Origin: Minisyncoccota bacterium
Lineage (GTDB): Bacteria; Patescibacteriota; Minisyncoccia; Phycocordibacterales; Phycocordibacteraceae
Assembly (NCBI GenBank): GCA_041664265.1
Contig: JBAYLD010000003.1
Location: 7,988-71,987 of the forward strand
Direction of reading: 5' to 3'
Length of the DNA stretch: 64,000 nt
The first letter of the stretch is position 1, and the number at the start of each line of letters is the position of its first letter. Shown in pieces: positions 1,059 to 55,667 of the stretch. The position numbers and the translations under genes are program-made. The notes beneath the pieces are model-generated. The model was not told the origin of the DNA. It ran no database searches and was given only the letters and a program-made list of their open reading frames with translations.

Positions 1059-1138
1059 GTGCATACTCAGTATGCACATGAGCGCGACTATCCGCGTGTA
1101 CCTTAATTTACGCTATAGCGTAAATTAAGGTACACGCG
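1059..1138. repeat. Composite palindromic repeat element copy A: 19-bp palindrome GTGCATACTCAGTATGCAC (1059-1077) followed by 46-bp perfect palindrome CGCGTGTACCTTAATTTACGCTATAGCGTAAATTAAGGTACACGCG (1093-1138)
   Basis: Read directly from sequence; reverse complement identical; related copies at 9814-9887 and 55107-55146. Confidence 0.85.
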
Positions 1139-3651: not shown

Positions 3652-5805
3652 ATGTCTCCTCATCGCACACAGCGGCATACTGTTATAACTTCTCTCCTTG
3701 TCCTTTTTGGGCTTGGACTTATTTTTGCCGGCGGTATTCTTGTATTAGTAGCGATCACTCCTGTGCCCGATATTAGTTCCTTTGCGAGCCGACAGATCAA
3801 CCAGTCGACAAAAATATACGATCGTACTGGGCAGGTTCTCTTATACGATTATAATCGGGACGCGAAGCGAGAGATTGTTCCGCTCGTATCCATGTCTCCT
3901 CATGTCATACAATCGACCATAGCGATCGAGGATTCGAGTTTTTATACACATGGCGGCATCCGCCTCACCTCTATCGTTCGCGCGATGATTGCTGATGTTC
4001 TTGGGGGTTCGCTTTCCCAAGGAGGTTCAACCATCACCCAGCAGGTGGTGAAGAATACGCTCCTCACAAATAAAAAAAGTGTGGTGCGTAAAATACATGA
4101 GTGGGCGCTCGCACTTCGACTCGAACAAGCCTACTCAAAGGACCAGATACTCGAGACCTATCTTAACAATATCCCCTTCGGGGGTACGCTCTATGGCGTC
4201 GAGGCGGCATCAGAGGCTTATTTCGGGATACCTGCAAAGGATCTTTCTGTTGCGAAGTCGGCATATCTCTCAGCTATGATACAGGCTCCTTCATTTTATT
4301 CGCCGTATGGGGCGAATCGCGCAAAACTCGATATGCGCAAAAATCTTGTGCTTGACCGCATGCGCGCACTCGGCTTCTTAGATGACGCCGCATATGCGTC
4401 CGCAAAAACAGAAGAGGTTTTGTTTGCCCCTGCGGGCCAGAACGCAATCATCGCGCCGCATTTCGTTTTTTATATCCTCAACCAGCTCGAAGAAAAATAT
4501 GGGAAGAATGCTTTGATTGGGGGGTTAAAGGTGACCACCACGCTTGATGCTGATCTCGAGACAAAAGCAGAATCAATAGTGAACAGCTACGCGCTTAAAA
4601 ACCAGAAGGATTTTAACGCATCAAATGCCACTTTGGTCGCGATCGACCCCCCGACGGGGCAAATTCTCGCGATGGTGGGCTCGCGCGACTTCTTTGACAC
4701 GACTATCGACGGGCAATATAATGCCGCGCTTGCCCTACGGCAACCAGGTTCGACCATGAAGCCGTTTATCTATTCGCTCGCCTTGATGCGCGGCTATACG
4801 CGCAACACGGTCGTCTTTGATACACCGACGCAATTCTCAACAGCTTGCAGACCCTTTGATGTCACGAACAACACACCACCCTGCTACGCTCCTGAAGACT
4901 ACGATGGCGCCTTTCGCGGCCCAATGACCTTTGAGACAGCACTCGCCCAATCGATCAACATACCCGCTATTAAGGTTCTTTACTTGGTTGGCATACAAAA
5001 CGCCATACATTTTGCAAAATCATTCGGGCTCACCACCCTCGGCGACCCGAGCCAATACGGCCTCACGCTCGTGCTCGGCGGTGGCGAAGTGAGGCTTCTC
5101 GACCTCACAGGCGCCTATGCCGCCTTCGCGAATGATGGAGTACAGAACACGCCCACAGGCATCCTCGAGGTGAATGATGCACAAGGGAATGTGCTTGAGC
5201 GCTATACCGCATCACCAGTCGTTGTAGCACCTACAAATATCGCGCGTGATATTTCAGCCATGCTTTCTAACGCCCAGGCGCGCCTACCAGAATATCCACT
5301 GAATTCTCCTCTCTCCTTCTCTGGCTATGACGTAGCGGTTAAGACAGGTACGACCGATGACACCCGTGACGCATGGGTGATCGGCTACACCCCCTCTATC
5401 GCCATCGGCGTCTGGACGGGTAATAATGACAACTCGAAGATGGTCAAATCTGTCGCTGGATTTATCGCGGCACCGATGTGGCATGAGGTGATGGCGTATG
5501 CGCTTTCAAAATATCCCCAGACATATTTTGGTGAACCAAGCCCGCTCTATGCCTCAGTACCGCCGATGTTGCAGGGGAATTGGCGTATACCTGATGCACA
5601 AGGAAATATCGTCCCGCACAGCCTCTTATATTGGACCGATAAACAAAATCCACAAGGAGCGCCTCCTTCAAATCCTGCACAAGACCCTCAATTCGCGTAT
5701 TGGGAGTATGGTGTATCTGCTTGGTACAACTCCCACCCCAACCTCTTCTCTGGAGGCGTCATGCTCCCTGTCCCGCTTTCTAATAACACTACTGTCGCTC
5801 AATAA
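3652..5805 (+). CDS. Class A penicillin-binding protein (bifunctional glycosyltransferase GT51 / transpeptidase), N-terminal membrane anchor
   Basis: GT51 motifs EDSSFYTHGG, GGSTITQQ; transpeptidase STMKP (SxxK), SFN-like and KTGT motifs; TM helix residues 12-35. Confidence 0.9.
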   Translation: MSPHRTQRHTVITSLLVLFGLGLIFAGGILVLVAITPVPDISSFASRQINQSTKIYDRTGQVLLYDYNRDAKREIVPLVSMSPHVIQSTIAIEDSSFYTHGGIRLTSIVRAMIADVLGGSLSQGGSTITQQVVKNTLLTNKKSVVRKIHEWALALRLEQAYSKDQILETYLNNIPFGGTLYGVEAASEAYFGIPAKDLSVAKSAYLSAMIQAPSFYSPYGANRAKLDMRKNLVLDRMRALGFLDDAAYASAKTEEVLFAPAGQNAIIAPHFVFYILNQLEEKYGKNALIGGLKVTTTLDADLETKAESIVNSYALKNQKDFNASNATLVAIDPPTGQILAMVGSRDFFDTTIDGQYNAALALRQPGSTMKPFIYSLALMRGYTRNTVVFDTPTQFSTACRPFDVTNNTPPCYAPEDYDGAFRGPMTFETALAQSINIPAIKVLYLVGIQNAIHFAKSFGLTTLGDPSQYGLTLVLGGGEVRLLDLTGAYAAFANDGVQNTPTGILEVNDAQGNVLERYTASPVVVAPTNIARDISAMLSNAQARLPEYPLNSPLSFSGYDVAVKTGTTDDTRDAWVIGYTPSIAIGVWTGNNDNSKMVKSVAGFIAAPMWHEVMAYALSKYPQTYFGEPSPLYASVPPMLQGNWRIPDAQGNIVPHSLLYWTDKQNPQGAPPSNPAQDPQFAYWEYGVSAWYNSHPNLFSGGVMLPVPLSNNTTVAQ

Positions 5806-8651: not shown

Positions 8652-8966
8652 GTGTTTCCGCGCAAAGAACGGTTTCCGCGCGCGCTCTTCCCCACCGCTT
8701 TAAAGACTGGCCGGCGACTCTCGTCAGCACATCTGACGATCCTCGTCCCAAGAGAAGGAAAGGGATATGCGGTGGTGGTGTCAAAAAAAGTGGCTCGTCT
8801 TTCAGTCAAGAGGAATCAAATAAGGCGCCGAATCCTCGCAGCGCTCCGCCGGGCACCCCTAGACGGAAAGACCCTCCCTCCGGCGCTTATTGTTTTTCCC
8901 CGTTCTTCTGTGAGTAGTGTAAGCTATAAAGATATTAAGGTAGAACTTATGCAACTTATTCCGTGA
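8652..8966 (+). CDS. rnpA: Ribonuclease P protein component (GTG start)
   Basis: Small basic protein directly after rpmH, RnpA-like RNR motif region (KRNQIRRRI), 104 aa. Confidence 0.85.
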   Translation: MFPRKERFPRALFPTALKTGRRLSSAHLTILVPREGKGYAVVVSKKVARLSVKRNQIRRRILAALRRAPLDGKTLPPALIVFPRSSVSSVSYKDIKVELMQLIP

Positions 8967-9694
8967 TATCAGCTTTTTTCCACACCGTCTTCTATAATCC
9001 GATCTACAATGCGCTCGTTGCGCTCGTTGCGCTCGTGCCTGGCTCTGATGTGGGTATTGCTGTCGTGTTGCTCACGATCGGTATTCGGCTTATCCTCCTC
9101 CCCTTCTCCCTCTCGGCGGCGCGTACCCAGCGCGCGATGAAGGCTTTAGAGCCAAAAATCAAGGAATTGAAGGATAAACATAAGGGCGATAAAGAAAAAG
9201 AGGCGCTTGAGACTCTCGCACTCTATCGCGAATCGCGTGTGAACCCATTTGCGAGCATTTTGACGGTTTTTATCCAGATACCGGTCCTTCTCGCGCTCTA
9301 TTGGGTGTTCTATTATGAGCCGTTTTCAACGATTAATACGGCTCTGTTGTACCCGTTTACCCCCACCCCCGGCACCGCGTCACTTGAATTCCTCGGGCTC
9401 ATCTCAGTCGCAGGTAAGAGCATTACGCTCGCGGTGCTCGCGGGGCTGACCCAATTCCTCCAAGCACACATGGCGCTCAGAGGGACCATGAGCCCAGCGC
9501 ACAGCAGTGCACAAGGGGATTTCCAGAAGATTATGGGCATGCAGCTCAAATATGTCTTCCCCTTCCTTATTGGCATTATTTCATATACAACTTCTGGAGC
9601 TGTGGCGCTTTATTTCATTACCACCAACCTCGCGGGCTCGCTCCAAGAATGGCACGTCCGGCGCAAACTCGACGCCGAAGCCCTACATACATAG
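8963..9694 (+). CDS. yidC: Membrane protein insertase YidC/Oxa1 family, short form (GTG start)
   Basis: 5 TM core with conserved YidC helices, 243 aa, follows rnpA. Confidence 0.9.
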   Translation: MISAFFHTVFYNPIYNALVALVALVPGSDVGIAVVLLTIGIRLILLPFSLSAARTQRAMKALEPKIKELKDKHKGDKEKEALETLALYRESRVNPFASILTVFIQIPVLLALYWVFYYEPFSTINTALLYPFTPTPGTASLEFLGLISVAGKSITLAVLAGLTQFLQAHMALRGTMSPAHSSAQGDFQKIMGMQLKYVFPFLIGIISYTTSGAVALYFITTNLAGSLQEWHVRRKLDAEALHT

Positions 9695-9712
9695 GGCTGC
9701 CCTATGTATGTA
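9684..9712. terminator. 13-bp-stem hairpin TACATACATAGGG-ctg-CCCTATGTATGTA overlapping the yidC stop codon; 23-nt core repeated at 31971-31993
   Basis: Perfect inverted repeat seen in sequence; weak T tract follows. Confidence 0.4.
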
Positions 9713-9736
9713 GGAGCAGTCTTTCTTCTGAGACAT

Positions 9737-9767
9737 CTCAATATCAAGGCGAAACCTTGATATTGAG
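9737..9767. other. Perfect hairpin CTCAATATCAAGG-cgaaa-CCTTGATATTGAG in yidC downstream spacer
   Basis: Seen in sequence. Confidence 0.5.
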
Positions 9768-9813
9768 GTATCCCCTATTTGTGCGGTCGTCGCATTTAGG
9801 GGTTAAACTGAAT

Positions 9814-9887
9814 GTACCTTCATTTACGCTATAGCGTGAAATATGGTACACACTCATCGTTCCAATCTGTGCATACCCAGTATGCAC
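9814..9887. repeat. Composite palindromic repeat element copy B (inverted order relative to copy A): degenerate GTACC-TTTACGCTATAGCGTGAAA-GGTAC palindrome (9814-9849) then GTGCATACCCAGTATGCAC (9869-9887)
   Basis: Shares CGCTATAGCG core and GTGCATAC..GTATGCAC palindrome with 1059-1138. Confidence 0.8.
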
Positions 9888-9917
9888 AACTTAAACCTTA
9901 CACCTTACCGCTTACGC

Positions 9918-11114
9918 CTAGAGCGAGTAGCTCCAGAGGGAGTCGTCGTTTTTGTTTAGAAACACGAGTGTTGTGGCATCTGGGTCGATCGCGAGCGCAG
10001 TGGCGTCGAGAGAATCCCCGGTTTCTTCTGGGAAATCGAGCACCAGCTGCGCATAGCGGCCCTCGACTTCGATCTTCCAAATCCGATCAGAGAACTGCAC
10101 AGCTCCCTGGTACCAATCATCCGGATACACAGAGTCAGTAGGAGGGTCGAGCGGGATACCGCAGTATACTGAAGAGTCGTCAGCGGCCCACACGCATTTA
10201 TCGACGATCGTAGTGACCGGGAGTGATGTGATGTCGCCCGTCTCGGTGTCAACAAGATCTAATTGCAGAGCGTTATCGAGGACGTAGCTCACCAGCGCCC
10301 ACTTCCCTGAGGGGCTCGCGAGGGCGACGAGACCGTTGAGCGGTCCGGCGATTCGGGAAAAGCGCCCAGCGTCATCGACAAGAAAGGCAGCCCCAGGGAG
10401 TGTGGCGGCTGGCTTGGTATACGCGAGATAGCGCGATTTGCCAGCAAATGAAACACGCAGCGCAGAGAGCGGGGTGCTAAACAGCTCTGCCGTACGCACA
10501 TCGTTTGTGGTACTAAGTGTCGCAACAGAACCAGTGACACCCGAGACGAGTGTGAGCACGCCCGCCGAAGAAACAGCGAGAGCAGAAATATTTTGCGGCA
10601 AAAAGAATCCTTCTGGTGGCGCCTCGGAGCGCGCCGGGAGTGCGTAGGTATTGATCGTAGAGAAATCTTCGCCGGAGAGGTACCGGACGAATGCCGTTTT
10701 TGCATCGGGGACCCACGCGGCAGATTGGATACCCGGGATCGTTTGATTATTCGTTCGGGTGACGGCTCCTGTGCGTGTGCTATAGGAGAAAACGTTTCCG
10801 CTCTGCCGTTCAATATAGTGCACCAGCGTCTCGGGAGAGGAACTTGCGTTTATCGCAGGGGCATTCACCACGGCCTCGCCCGGCACTACCGGTCCCACGC
10901 TTATCTTCACGAGCCGCGCGGATATGGGGGTCGGTTCGCCCGCGGGTGTCGTGGTGCCGGAGTCTGCAGGAAATATACCCTGCCCCGCTAGAGGGAGGTT
11001 TACGTTTGGCGCGACGGTGAGGCTCGCTTTGGGGGTGAAGAAATAGAAATAGACGAACGCACCTACTCCTATCAGGAGTATCAGAATCGCGGCGATGATC
11101 AAGATGCGTCGCAT
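9918..11114 (-). CDS. Membrane-anchored hypothetical protein (N-terminal TM, ~370 aa extracytoplasmic Ser/Thr-rich beta-rich domain); last gene of T4SS-like operon
   Basis: TM helix RRILIIAAILILLIGVGAFVYFYFF; no recognisable catalytic motif; start taken at second Met of ORF 9918-11144. Confidence 0.55.
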   Translation of the reverse strand: MRRILIIAAILILLIGVGAFVYFYFFTPKASLTVAPNVNLPLAGQGIFPADSGTTTPAGEPTPISARLVKISVGPVVPGEAVVNAPAINASSSPETLVHYIERQSGNVFSYSTRTGAVTRTNNQTIPGIQSAAWVPDAKTAFVRYLSGEDFSTINTYALPARSEAPPEGFFLPQNISALAVSSAGVLTLVSGVTGSVATLSTTNDVRTAELFSTPLSALRVSFAGKSRYLAYTKPAATLPGAAFLVDDAGRFSRIAGPLNGLVALASPSGKWALVSYVLDNALQLDLVDTETGDITSLPVTTIVDKCVWAADDSSVYCGIPLDPPTDSVYPDDWYQGAVQFSDRIWKIEVEGRYAQLVLDFPEETGDSLDATALAIDPDATTLVFLNKNDDSLWSYSL

Positions 11115-11118
11115 AGCA

Positions 11119-11895
11119 TTATGGCGTAGGTACGTTGCACCCAACCACGAGGCTTAAACTACCCGGACACGTAAGGGTATTCGTTTTTGGGTCGACGCTC
11201 GTGACTTGGGCGGTTTTCCCGTCTGGGCTTAGGCATTTAGGTTGCTGGGGCCTCCCAGGGATAGCAGAGCAGCTTTTTATGGTGTTCTTGCAATCAGGAT
11301 CATTGGTGCAGAACATCAGTCGCAGGCTGGGGTCGGTAGATACTATTGAGTTTAATCCTCCTGCAAGTGGCGGAGGTGTGGGTGCTATTGGCACTCTTGT
11401 TGATGTTGATGATTTGGTATCGAGTGCCGGAAGGTTCAACGAGAGATTTAGGATGTTCGGATTGATAATGGAGAAGACGATTGCCGGCGAGAGGACGAGG
11501 ATAAGGCCGTATATGGCGTTGTAGATTTTCCCCTTATCATCAGTGATGGTACTGACCGCGTCTTTATGGAAGTAAGCGATATCGAGTCCGGACCATATGA
11601 TCTGGATGATTGCGAGTATCGCGGCAAGCCCGATGAGATATTTATAGAGATTATTGAAGAAGGTGGCGAGCGAAGTTGAATTCACCACACTCGTCACACT
11701 AGCATCAGTAAGTCCGGGGATGGGCGCGAGTGCGACGAAGCTGACACATTTGTTTTCCGCACAAGAAAGCCCCGAAACACAGTCGTTATCGCTCGTACAA
11801 GCACTTCCATTCTGACCGGTACCCGCAGCGAGCACATACGGCGCAAGCCCAAAGAAAAGAGACAAGATTGCTGCAAAGAGGACTGTTTTTCTCAT
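11119..11895 (-). CDS. Secreted cysteine-rich protein with central double-TM hairpin; candidate VirB2/TrbC-like pilin subunit
   Basis: Signal peptide, two hydrophobic helices (LIGLAAILAIIQIIWSGL / IYGLILVLSPAIVFSII) resembling T4SS pilin fold, operonic with VirB4. Confidence 0.4.
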   Translation of the reverse strand: MRKTVLFAAILSLFFGLAPYVLAAGTGQNGSACTSDNDCVSGLSCAENKCVSFVALAPIPGLTDASVTSVVNSTSLATFFNNLYKYLIGLAAILAIIQIIWSGLDIAYFHKDAVSTITDDKGKIYNAIYGLILVLSPAIVFSIINPNILNLSLNLPALDTKSSTSTRVPIAPTPPPLAGGLNSIVSTDPSLRLMFCTNDPDCKNTIKSCSAIPGRPQQPKCLSPDGKTAQVTSVDPKTNTLTCPGSLSLVVGCNVPTP

Positions 11896-17309: not shown

Positions 17310-17846
17310 ATGACGTACACACCAAAAACGTTCAACCTCTCTGCCCTATCGGGGATCTCGGATAAGCAGATTAAAGTGCATCTCGCGCTGTATGAGGGCT
17401 ACGTGAAGCAGGTGAACGAGCTCATCGACACGCCGAATGCTCCCCGATTTGCTTTTGAGTTTAATGGTATGCGTCTGCACGAATATTATTTTGAGCAACT
17501 TGAGGGACGTCAGACGTCCCTCACTTCCGGAAGCGCACTTGAGGGGATTGAGGCGAAAGTCAAAGAAACTGCGGGGACACGCGGCCCTGGGTGGGTGGTT
17601 GTGTACTTCGATCCGGTCACGCAGGCATTTCATACCGCTTTTGTGCATGACCATGAGATCGGTCAGTTCGCGGGGCTGCCGATTATTCTCGTGCTCGATA
17701 TGTGGGAGCACGCCTATATGGTGGACTATCTGCCAGCGGAGAAGAAGAATTATATTGACGCCTTCTTCGCCAATGTTAATTGGGGCGTGATTGAGAGGCG
17801 TTTTGACTCCGCCAGTCGTCGGAGCGAGAAGATGAGTGCCGCATAA
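17310..17846 (+). CDS. Fe/Mn superoxide dismutase
   Basis: DMWEHAY motif, conserved His ligands; start taken at MTYTPKTF with AGGGGG RBS (ORF 17217-17846). Confidence 0.85.
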   Translation: MTYTPKTFNLSALSGISDKQIKVHLALYEGYVKQVNELIDTPNAPRFAFEFNGMRLHEYYFEQLEGRQTSLTSGSALEGIEAKVKETAGTRGPGWVVVYFDPVTQAFHTAFVHDHEIGQFAGLPIILVLDMWEHAYMVDYLPAEKKNYIDAFFANVNWGVIERRFDSASRRSEKMSAA

Positions 17847-30253: not shown

Positions 30254-30748
30254 ATGATAAAGGTAGCGGAGATTCCCGTCGCAAGGGTTCCGGTATTCAA
30301 CGTCCGGGACAAGTTTCGGGAGGGTGAGGAGGTTGACGGTGTAAGGATTGCGCGAATCGGACCCATCTTTAAACTACGCTTCCTGGGCAAACAGGAGAGG
30401 AGGATTGCCCCGAGCAGGTTGTGGGTGCAGATGCTGCTCGCCGAAGAATCGTCAAGCGTCTCTATTGTCGAAAGACTGGGCAATGTGGAAACACCGATGG
30501 CTCAGTCTTGGGAGGCATTGGCGCTGCAAGGAAAAGGTCAACGAGGGTATCTTCGTGTTGATCTTCCCACCGTCACTTTTTCTTTCGACACAAAGGGGGA
30601 CCTTTGTTCCTGGTATGTCCGGTGGCTTCCAGAAGCGAAGGGGTGGTATGTTGGGGCCACACCCATCGATAGCCCAAATTCTTTGTGGGAAAGGGGAGCT
30701 CAAGTCTTGTCGCGCCCTCCTTCTTTCCAAATGTTGCTTAACAACTGA
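30254..30748 (+). CDS. Hypothetical protein (164 aa), divergent from pilB
   Basis: Strong SD AAAGGAGG 6 nt upstream of ATG; no recognisable motif. Confidence 0.6.
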   Translation: MIKVAEIPVARVPVFNVRDKFREGEEVDGVRIARIGPIFKLRFLGKQERRIAPSRLWVQMLLAEESSSVSIVERLGNVETPMAQSWEALALQGKGQRGYLRVDLPTVTFSFDTKGDLCSWYVRWLPEAKGWYVGATPIDSPNSLWERGAQVLSRPPSFQMLLNN

Positions 30749-30807: not shown

Positions 30808-30822
30808 TACAGGCTATCCACA

Positions 30823-30896
30823 ACTTGTCGCTATAGCGACAAGTCTTGGATACCTACCTCGCATGAGCTTGACAAAATAGCCGAGTCGTGTATACT
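30823..30896 (+). promoter_or_regulatory. Promoter module 1: 20-bp palindrome CTTGTCGCTATAGCGACAAG, shared 17-mer GACAAGTCTTGGATACC (30837-30853), -35 TTGACA (30868-30873), 16-nt spacer, -10 TATACT (30890-30895)
   Basis: Consensus sigma70-like hexamers with optimal spacing; near-identical module at 31998-32062. Confidence 0.6.
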
Positions 30897-31970: not shown

Positions 31971-31993
31971 CATACATAGGGCTGCCCTATGTA
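31971..31993. repeat. 23-nt hairpin CATACATAGGGCTGCCCTATGTA, identical to 9686-9708
   Basis: Exact repeat seen in sequence. Confidence 0.8.
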
Positions 31994-34840: not shown

Positions 34841-34841
34841 T

Positions 34842-34896
34842 GGACAAGTCAGACTTGTCCAAACAAAAACCCGCCCTCAGGCGGGGTTTTGTGTTT
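34842..34896 (+). terminator. Palindrome GGACAAGTCAGACTTGTCC followed by rho-independent terminator (CCCGCC-ctcag-GCGGGG + TTTTGTGTTT)
   Basis: Seen in sequence directly after clpP stop. Confidence 0.7.
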
Positions 34897-54580: not shown

Positions 54581-54844
54581 ATGTACCAAATCCAATACTC
54601 GGGTCATGTACGATCTGTAGAAATTCCTAAGCTGGATCCTGCGATAAGGATGGTCATCCTGCAGGCAATTGAACTCAAGCTCATGACCGCACCTGAAGTG
54701 TTTGGAAAACCTCTTCGACATACGCTACGTTTGTTGCGAGCGCTTCGTGTTGGTGATTGGCGGGTAGTCTATCAGCTCTCGGGCGAGGTTGTGTACGTGG
54801 TGACCATCCGACACCGCAGACAAGGCTATGACGATCTTTCATAA
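54581..54844 (+). CDS. RelE/ParE family type II toxin
   Basis: C-terminal RVGDWRVVYQLSGEVVYVVTIRHRRQGY signature; start at MYQIQYS inside ORF 54530-54844. Confidence 0.7.
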   Translation: MYQIQYSGHVRSVEIPKLDPAIRMVILQAIELKLMTAPEVFGKPLRHTLRLLRALRVGDWRVVYQLSGEVVYVVTIRHRRQGYDDLS

Positions 54845-55667
54845 AACAAAGAAATCACTCGGGCAGAATTTTTTGATGCATACGCGCATCGCAGAGCGAA
54901 TTGCTGATGCGGCCAAGCTCGCATCGGATGCGACTGTGCTCGAGATCGGTCCGGGGACGGGGATGCTCACGCGAGAACTTTTGAAAAAAGCGAAAAAAGT
55001 AATCGCAGTTGAGGCCGACCAAGAACTTTTTGAAAAACTACAGGCTGATTTTGCAAGTGAAATCGCCTCTGGTCAGCTCGAGCTCATCTACGGCGACATC
55101 CGCAACGTGTACCTTAATTTACGCTATAGCGTAAAAGATGGTACATCTGAAAAGTATGAAATAGTGGCGAATATTCCGTATTATCTGACCGGGGAGATTT
55201 TCAGAATGTTCCTCACGGCCGAGCATCAGCCAAGCTCGATGACGCTCTTGGTGCAGAAAGAGGTTGCGGAGAGAATAGCGCGGAGCAACCCCGACGCGAA
55301 GCGGTCGGGGCCCCGACCAAAGCGTCGGGGGAAAGAATCAATTCTCTCGCTCTCGGTTAAGGCGTTTGGGATGCCAAAGTATGAATTCACGGTCCCGCGC
55401 GGCGCCTTCATGCCCGCACCCAAGGTAGATTCTGCAGTGCTCGCTATCCGCGACATCTCGCGCAAGAATTTTGCCTCGCACGCCCAAGAGGAACAATTTT
55501 TCAAACTTTTGCACGCCGGATTCGCTCATAAGCGCAAATTTGTCCGCAAAAATCTCTTGGAGGCTTCGCTTCCGCAAGGCGAGATCCCAGAGAAGGCTCG
55601 TGCCGAGGATGTACCGCTTGAAACATGGCTTGCTTTGAGCAAGGTCGAGGGGCTCGCAACTCTGTAG
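54828..55667 (+). CDS. rsmA: 16S rRNA (adenine1518/1519-N6)-dimethyltransferase RsmA/KsgA, with a palindromic repeat element copy embedded in-frame
   Basis: GQNFL, EIGPGTG SAM motif, ANIPY motif. Confidence 0.9.
   Translation: MTIFHKTKKSLGQNFLMHTRIAERIADAAKLASDATVLEIGPGTGMLTRELLKKAKKVIAVEADQELFEKLQADFASEIASGQLELIYGDIRNVYLNLRYSVKDGTSEKYEIVANIPYYLTGEIFRMFLTAEHQPSSMTLLVQKEVAERIARSNPDAKRSGPRPKRRGKESILSLSVKAFGMPKYEFTVPRGAFMPAPKVDSAVLAIRDISRKNFASHAQEEQFFKLLHAGFAHKRKFVRKNLLEASLPQGEIPEKARAEDVPLETWLALSKVEGLATL
55107..55146. repeat. Palindromic repeat element copy C (GTGTACCTTAATTTACGCTATAGCGTAAAAGATGGTACAT), degenerate right arm, inside rsmA coding sequence (encodes ...VYLNLRYSVKDGT...)
   Basis: Left arm and core identical to copy A at 1097-1125. 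Confidence 0.8.

Follow-up and report, generated by a model that had tools for sequence, protein, structure and literature searches.

A family of 38-bp palindromes in Paceibacteria and its linkage to genes for a small PaaX-like protein

What are the palindromes that lie just beyond a pilB-like gene near the start of this DNA, and how are they related to the similar sequences found further along it? An earlier note on the window (the whole stretch of DNA that was analysed, 64 kb in length) had offered two possibilities: a MITE/REP-like mobile palindromic element, or a family of operators for a dimeric regulator. Both can be weighed from the layout of the palindromes, their distribution across genomes, and the genes that accompany them.

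Four palindromes in the window

The window contains exactly four 38-bp palindromes centred on CGCTATAGCG, at 1097-1134, 9813-9850, 30815-30852 and 55108-55145 (sites 1 to 4). The core 10-mer starts at 1111, 9827, 30829 and 55122; the third of these positions had previously been misplaced to 30827. Its excess over chance, also claimed before, holds up well, with 0.06 occurrences expected against the four observed and none of 100 shuffles reaching four. When every C[TG]ATAG centre in the whole window was scanned over 19 flanking pairs, the outcome was cleanly bimodal: four centres were paired at 15-19 of the 19 positions and the rest at 10 or fewer. CTATAG itself occurs six times in the window, four of them at the palindrome sites. 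Judged by sequence, all four represent a single 38-bp inverted-repeat element, which consists of a 6-bp outer arm, a 4-bp spacer, an 18-bp core (TTYACGC-TATA-GCGTRAA), a second 4-bp spacer and the opposite 6-bp outer arm. The arms come in two types, TGTACC-N26-GGTACA at sites 1, 2 and 4 (type 1) and TATCCA-N26-TGGATA at site 3 (type 2), so that the core copies, once taken for a single family, belong to two arm families. The same centre scan, which counts four copies in 64 kb here, found five in the 20.6 kb of locus L200, one in L117 and none in L118.

Site 1 (1093-1138, with the 38-bp unit at 1097-1134) is a type 1 copy with 19 of 19 pairs and, as originally reported, 46 nt of perfect symmetry; as a DNA hairpin it has a folding energy of -25.2 kcal/mol (z -10.7). 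On one side lies the stop codon of the pilB-like gene (1047) and on the other the terminator of a minus-strand transcript (1183->1153). Its placement past the end of the plus-strand pilB gene had been recognised correctly, but the site is not simply upstream of ruvB, since the minus-strand terminator intervenes; ruvB has its own TGAACA-17-TAGAAT promoter, 30 nt from the ATG. Site 2 (9813-9850; type 1, 15 of 19 pairs) occupies the convergent spacer between yidC (8963-9694, plus strand) and an ORF at 9918-11144 on the minus strand, and a scan of the region 9650-9950 found no promoter-like or terminator-like site. Site 3 (30815-30852; type 2, core CTTGTCGCTATAGCGACAAG, 17 of 19 pairs) is flanked by a hairpin and T-run that follow the ORF at 30254-30748, and by a TTGACA-16-TATACT promoter-like site at 30869-30896. 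Site 4 (55108-55145) had been noticed as a further occurrence of the large module, and it is indeed a type 1 copy with 16 of 19 pairs; however, it is not extragenic. It lies in frame in the ksgA/rsmA ORF (54828-55667, plus strand), where its peptide forms the loop VYLNLRYSVKDGT between the GDIR and ANIPYY motifs of KsgA. Homologues of this KsgA identify the organism as one of the Candidatus Kaiserbacteria (CPR).

A 19-bp palindrome, GTGCATACNNNGTATGCAC, occurs in the window only at 1059-1077 (GTGCATACTCAGTATGCAC) and 9869-9887 (GTGCATACCCAGTATGCAC), with a large palindrome beside it both times. It stands 19 nt from the 38-bp unit of site 1 and 18 nt from that of site 2, in mirrored order, as the earlier note had seen, and the spacers are unrelated in sequence. 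At up to one mismatch the 19-bp module was absent from all 198 loci compared. By this comparison it is specific to this genome and stands outside the conserved family, of which it had been considered a part.

Several generic identities were considered for the four sites and rejected. An intrinsic terminator was set aside, there being no T-run asymmetry and no terminator called at any of the four sites by the scan, and no generic sigma-70 promoter was called at the palindromes. Only four tRNAs pass the gathering score for Rfam 15 families in the window. A parS identity was likewise set aside; the TTCACG half-site resembles parS over 6 nt only.

A class-wide family of palindromes

The CPR bacteria, or Patescibacteria, are a large and almost uncultured group about whose gene regulation next to nothing has been learnt. 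Scanning 185,579 species genomes for the 18-bp TTYACGCTATAGCGTRAA yielded at least 116 loci, nearly all in the class Paceibacteria/Parcubacteria and ranging in GC content from 31 to 58%. Among the core matches listed, the main lineages are Kaiser-, Taylor-, Lloyd-, Nomura-, Giovannoni-, Wolfe- and Portnoybacteria, and two loci are from Chloroflexi. At the CPR and Chloroflexi loci, the flanks lengthen the palindrome by 8-21 bp, and the sequence of this extension is lineage-specific yet complementary. Eight chance core matches in non-CPR genomes (e.g. Prevotella and Arthrobacter) show no such extension and therefore provide an internal control for the flank symmetry. The search of related genomes that the earlier note had advised thus shows a class-wide family, and the extended symmetry of the flanks is not what background matches look like.

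The symmetry of the element is maintained while its sequence changes. In 112 ungapped aligned copies, 83.7% of cells pair, and at ten positions of the stem every one of the four pair types is represented. These copies have a covariation score of 0.553, compared with 0.164 after shuffling (none of 500 shuffles reaches the observed value) and at most 0.19 in slid controls. Perfect symmetry reaches 46-60 bp in some copies. Between copies of one genome we counted 22 mirrored, or compensated, arm changes, 21 of them outside comparisons of the Kaiserbacteria type 1 (TGTACC) copies; changes of this kind favour selected or generated intrastrand pairing over base-specific reading of the arms. As a whole, the symmetry data fit both a symmetric dimer bound to duplex DNA and a hairpin mechanism, and cannot separate the two. 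Eighty intergenic copies could be placed relative to their neighbours, with 26 between convergent genes, 45 between tandem genes and 9 between divergent genes. Coding copies were seen only in ksgA; the others are intergenic, with a preference for gene 3' ends.

The two Chloroflexi loci, L014 (Ktedonobacter racemifer, 4945-5004) and L076 (Chloroflexales), carry the same 18-bp core with perfect extensions of 12-21 bp, and no PaaX_M gene (see below) was found within 8 kb of either copy. These copies point to a wider distribution of the element or to horizontal transfer. At L108 (1-226), the palindrome is perfect for 104 bp up to the contig end, which we take, with near certainty, for an artefact of assembly in which the element seeded a fold-back. 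In practical terms, the palindromes can cause artefacts of assembly as well as spurious peptides in annotations.

Linkage to a mini-PaaX gene

Does any gene travel with the palindromes? At eight loci, two copies lie 0.4-1 kb apart, and at seven of these a PaaX_M (PF20803) gene sits between the copies; at the eighth, L009, no PaaX_M gene lies between them. Among the matches listed, a PaaX_M gene is found within 10-60 bp of the palindrome at 32 of 116 loci, most of which have a second palindrome on the other side of the gene, often with a slightly diverged core. Altogether, about 30 genomes have a gene for a small winged-helix and Cas2-like (PaaX_M) protein bracketed by two palindromes. PaaX_M was also the sole enriched family in a Pfam census of 154 neighbour genes (14 of 61 and 19 of 93). 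The neighbours matching CRISPR_Cas2 (5 and 4) are the same proteins, no other family was found more than twice, and the remaining neighbours are unrelated, diverse housekeeping genes. The reverse test gave the same association: at loci picked by the protein alone, a palindrome was present upstream of all six genes and also downstream of five.

Kaiserbacteria have two paralogues of this gene, each with its own palindromes. The type 1 gene lies between TGYACC arms and the type 2 gene between TATCC arms, and both paralogues with their own arm types occur together in L200. The arms of site 3 in the window are those that bracket the type 2 gene in L022, L028 and L200. The 64-kb window encodes no PaaX_M gene of either paralogue, and thus its four palindromes are solo sites, three of type 1 and one of type 2. 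The type 1 protein (P0121 family) has more than 100 Kaiserbacteria homologues, 73-91% identical, and its gene occupies a fixed position in the order efp, ECF sigma factor, anti-sigma factor, type 1 gene and convergent recA. Short-form proteins of 120-160 aa, lacking a recognisable winged helix, accompany shorter palindromes.

What kind of protein do these genes encode? PF20803 matched the products of all seven bracketed genes with E-values of 1e-12 to 1e-22. In the AlphaFold model, a low-confidence stretch of 69 N-terminal residues is followed by a winged helix (67-115) and a Cas2-like fold (131-208). The best Foldseek match in the PDB is E. coli PaaX (8a39), with an E-value of only 1.6e-3, followed by Cas2 proteins and VapD. 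The bracketed proteins have no match to the PaaX_C ligand domain and end after the Cas2-like domain, and the NCBIfam PaaX model TIGR02277 gives 38 bits, far below its cutoff of 264.55. D137 and E140, in an FD(V/I)PE motif, are invariant. No His or Tyr is found among the invariant columns, and hence there is no HUH or catalytic-Tyr motif. PADLOC defence-system models returned only weak Cas2 matches. We refer to this protein as mini-PaaX.

The operator of E. coli PaaX is TGATTC(N27)GAATCA, and the Cas2-like domain of PaaX has been described as a dimerisation motif (PMC9493321). Mini-PaaX resembles PaaX in its order of domains, a winged helix and then a Cas2-like domain (PF20803; best fold match 8a39). 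The palindrome likewise resembles the operator, with two 6-bp inverted arms separated by N26 here and by N27 in E. coli, and, as in E. coli, the site at the regulator's own gene overlaps its promoter, here an apparent one. In all six type 1 genes, the upstream copy has TA(G/A)(A/G)AT in its right half, at a distance of exactly 7 nt from the ATG, and the left arm of that copy lies 18 nt upstream of the hexamer. From these positions, the upstream copy coincides with the apparent leaderless promoter of the type 1 gene. However, mini-PaaX also differs from PaaX in several respects. It lacks PaaX_C and is 190-240 aa long (or 120-160 aa), compared with about 316 aa for PaaX; its gene is bracketed by two sites, and solo sites lie at gene ends and in frame in ksgA; and the mini-PaaX system includes no phenylacetate genes. 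In contrast to the PaaX operator, the palindrome has, within the 26 bp that separate its arms, an 18-bp core conserved across a bacterial class.

Further sequence features surround the regulator genes. A conserved TTATCCACA lies about 25 nt upstream of the type 1 gene's palindrome in L008, L080, L104, L111, L112 and L200. It is identical to the DnaA-box consensus and also matches the type 2 arm (TATCCAC); we rejected the DnaA-box reading in favour of the match to the type 2 arm, and this match suggests possible cross-regulation between the two paralogues. On one Paceibacteria contig (L202, 4175-6226), a LexA gene and a DinB-like (IMS) gene adjoin the mini-PaaX gene, and the LexA gene indicates that these bacteria have a conventional SOS repressor. 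A regulon with an SOS theme, which the proximity of site 1 to ruvB and of the regulator to recA might bring to mind, was also rejected, as the palindromes' neighbours are diverse housekeeping genes, ruvB has its own promoter, and LexA exists.

Mini-PaaX and the palindromes may be worth attention as a candidate class-wide protein-DNA pair, with a defined 38-bp site, a near-invariant 18-bp core and a small protein that should be easy to express. Two pairs of paralogue and arm type in one genome would provide a built-in control for specificity. Our searches of the literature on the core sequence, on PaaX-like proteins, and on palindromes or REPs in CPR returned no description of the element or of the protein, and we thus found both the element family and the PaaX-like protein of CPR undescribed in the searchable literature.

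Solo copies and their possible origin and function

How did the solo copies arrive at their present places? For site 1 we examined 80 relatives with RuvB 82-94% identical, about 55 of which keep the pilB-ruvB synteny. None of these roughly 55 syntenic relatives, the closest relative L119 included, has a type 1 palindrome between pilB and ruvB, and the spacer of most of them contains nothing but a conserved block of about 175 nt. Site 1 was found at the syntenic spot in L006 only. The KsgA loop varies in a similar way among 120 close homologues, 35 of which have the type 1 peptide (..SRYSVK..), about 27 a type 2-like peptide (YPxN..AIA..GY) and about 52 the canonical TFDISSLPKGYA. The DNA of L117 confirms the type 2-like loop, TATCCAATAAATCCTGCTATAGCGGGAAATAGTGGATA, in a different reading frame, and some type 1 loops retain both halves of the canonical loop. 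A rough neighbour-joining tree of the loop states, itself poorly resolved, needs at least 33 changes, compared with a mean of 51 when the labels are shuffled, which suggests that the loop may have undergone repeated gain, loss or switching. The solo copies look inserted, given that about 55 syntenic relatives lack site 1 and that the loop in ksgA is canonical in about half of the close homologues. Palindromes would thereby have entered an essential gene, ksgA, in frame and repeatedly, in streamlined genomes.

Dispersed palindromes with a linked gene are familiar from other systems. REPs are extragenic palindromes present in tens to hundreds of copies per genome. Like REP/RAYT systems, the present family comprises short, lineage-specific palindromes with compensated stems, dispersed mostly at gene 3' ends, and includes a single vertically inherited gene between two copies of its own palindrome. 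Unlike in REP/RAYT systems, the bracketed gene encodes a Cas2-fold, winged-helix protein rather than an HUH Y1 transposase; the copy number appears low; the apex of the hairpin is conserved and not its foot; and the feet, which are lineage-specific in the 112 aligned copies, have no GTAG/GGAG tetranucleotide. Rickettsia palindromic elements (RPE) offer a parallel for site 4, in that a palindrome lies in frame in a conserved housekeeping gene (here ksgA) and adds a peptide loop. RPE are about 100-150 bp long, are found in Rickettsia and have no known cognate protein, whereas the element here is 38 bp long and was seen in one coding host gene.

We lean, with slightly better than even confidence, towards a reading in which the palindromes would be the dispersed cognate sites of an autoregulated mini-PaaX dimer, in a REP/RAYT-like architecture that has no HUH transposase. 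Mini-PaaX, conserved across Paceibacteria, would form a small dimer that combines a winged helix with a Cas2-like dimerisation domain and dispenses with the ligand domain of PaaX. Its two winged helices would read the outer arms, 26 bp apart, as PaaX reads TGATTC-N27-GAATCA, and the Cas2-like dimer would lie over the conserved, bendable, TATA-centred core. At the regulator's own promoter, the left arm would act as a weak -35 and TA(G/A)(A/G)AT in the right half as the -10; a -10 placed exactly 7 nt before the ATG implies a leaderless mRNA. A dimer on the upstream copy would then repress its own gene, and the second copy, just after the stop codon, could possibly support looping or act as a roadblock. 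The solo sites would be lineage-specific insertions at tolerated places, such as a convergent spacer, the gap between a terminator and a promoter, or a surface loop of KsgA. The operator half of the earlier proposal gains from these observations a candidate cognate gene bracketed in about 30 genomes, paralogue-specific arms and a PaaX-like geometry, with binding predicted from sequence.

Several observations run counter to operators. Many solo copies are not at promoters (sites 1 and 2 are convergent, site 4 is coding, and of 80 intergenic copies 26 are convergent and 9 divergent), the window encodes neither regulator, the Chloroflexi copies lack a PaaX_M gene within 8 kb, the mirrored arm changes speak for pairing, perfect symmetry of 46-60 bp exceeds the footprint of a dimer, the short-form proteins lack a winged helix, and the scores for the PaaX fold and TIGR02277 are weak. 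Alternatively, the functional form might be a hairpin of single-stranded DNA or RNA, with the Cas2-like domain recognising, and perhaps cutting, its conserved apex; the bracketed gene would then be a domesticated autonomous unit that mobilises the solo copies in trans. We consider this possible but rather unlikely. A gene between two complete hairpins, with solo copies at gene 3' ends, is an architecture of the IS200/IS605 and REP/RAYT type, and the mirrored arm changes within genomes, the strong covariation, the insertion polymorphism of site 1 and the in-frame ksgA copies would all follow. The Cas2-like domain is, moreover, the sole part common to the long and short proteins, just as the core is the sole part common to all elements; D137 and E140 are invariant, and the nucleases Cas2 and VapD are the next-best fold matches. 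Yet the 4-nt spacers are often non-complementary in Kaiserbacteria, whose type 1 comparisons contribute one of the 22 mirrored changes, and the seven apical base pairs are invariant in sequence, as is typical of duplex reading. Mismatches of the G.U and A.C types on the sense strand number 15 and 11, showing no strand bias. The copy number looks low, with about one third of exact-core copies adjoining the gene among the matches listed; the gene is inherited vertically in fixed synteny; and the corresponding domain of PaaX is regarded as a dimerisation motif (PMC9493321). A bolder version by analogy, a class-wide REP/RAYT-like system built on a Cas2-fold protein that recognises the apex, spreads the palindromes and inserts them in frame into essential genes such as ksgA, seems to us quite unlikely. 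If true, such a system would represent a novel type of mobile or domesticated element, with a free-living relative of Cas2, the CRISPR adaptation protein, acting on palindromic DNA. Any action of the Cas2-like domain on DNA beyond dimerisation would bear on how Cas2-fold proteins came to act on palindromic repeats.

Could the palindromes instead act in RNA, as terminators or mRNA stabilisers at 3' ends for either strand, and as leaders that sequester the Shine-Dalgarno sequence at the regulator gene? The bias towards 3' ends and convergent spacers, the stable stems, the identical hairpin that a palindrome yields on both strands, and a right arm (AAGGTR) that abuts the regulator's ATG would fit such a role. 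However, T-runs are about as frequent before the stem (28% of copies) as after it (only 26%; background about 14%), and sites 1 and 3 each come after a canonical terminator that is separate from the palindrome. The sense strand shows no G.U bias, with ksgA copies carrying C.A on it, and Rfam gave no match beyond spurious, sub-threshold miRNA-hairpin matches. An ATG 7 nt after a -10-like hexamer also makes the arm look like part of a promoter rather than of a leader, and we consider a role in RNA very unlikely. A classical MITE, or a REP mobilised by a RAYT/IS200-type transposase, deserves hardly any credence. Short, dispersed, palindromic elements with presence/absence polymorphism are what such a system would produce, and one of the 154 neighbours is a Y1_Tnp gene; but that IS200 copy (L078) ends in hairpins of its own, which differ from the palindrome, and the palindrome lies 140 nt outside it. 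No direct repeats were found flanking the copies, and target-site duplications, a GTAG/GGAG head and transposase enrichment are all lacking. The mobile half of the earlier proposal is accordingly left with insertion-like solo copies and a 3'-end bias, and loses the terminal inverted repeats with target duplication, the GTAG head and the RAYT or other transposase. The 2.9 million viral contigs of IMG/VR contain one match, which speaks against a MITE or REP; a phage origin was rejected on the same count.

Other small elements lie close to the solo copies. Within ksgA, a second in-frame insert (55289-55330) consists of two tandem G+C-rich hairpins, CCCCGACgcgaagcgGTCGGGG and then CCCCGACcaaagcGTCGGGG, and encodes NPDAKRSGPRPKRRG. 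This peptide, or alternatives to it (GNPERSRGA, KKPLDSARG), is patchy among KsgA homologues that are otherwise 70% identical. The pilB-ruvB spacer holds a candidate ncRNA on the minus strand (1190-1443), with a promoter-like TTGACA-17-TAACAT (1471->1443) and a strong terminator (1183->1153). Its block of about 175 nt (~1265-1435) is the one conserved in about 55 relatives and has compensated helices and a CUUCGG loop on the minus strand; it matched no Rfam family at E<=1. Within 1191-1277, direct repeats TTCCCGTCC (1191-1199 and 1269-1277) flank the sequence 1200-1268, which together with one repeat measures about 78 nt. This segment is shared with L119, and most relatives lack it and have a single TCCCGTCC instead. 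Its appearance is that of a small insertion within the candidate ncRNA, carrying a hairpin and accompanied by a target-site duplication.

Two further kinds of palindrome occur in the window. TACATAGGGC-T-GCCCTATGTA is present at 9682-9714 and 31973-31993, one copy overlapping the yidC stop codon. The other kind, 21-25 bp long, has a conserved ..GTC-A-GAC.. centre between arms that vary. It lies at 17501-17523 and 34841-34861, as well as at 10779-10801 and 17457-17481 of L117, and may constitute a further family of sites; the copy at 34841 has the arm sequence GACAAGT in common with the core of site 3.
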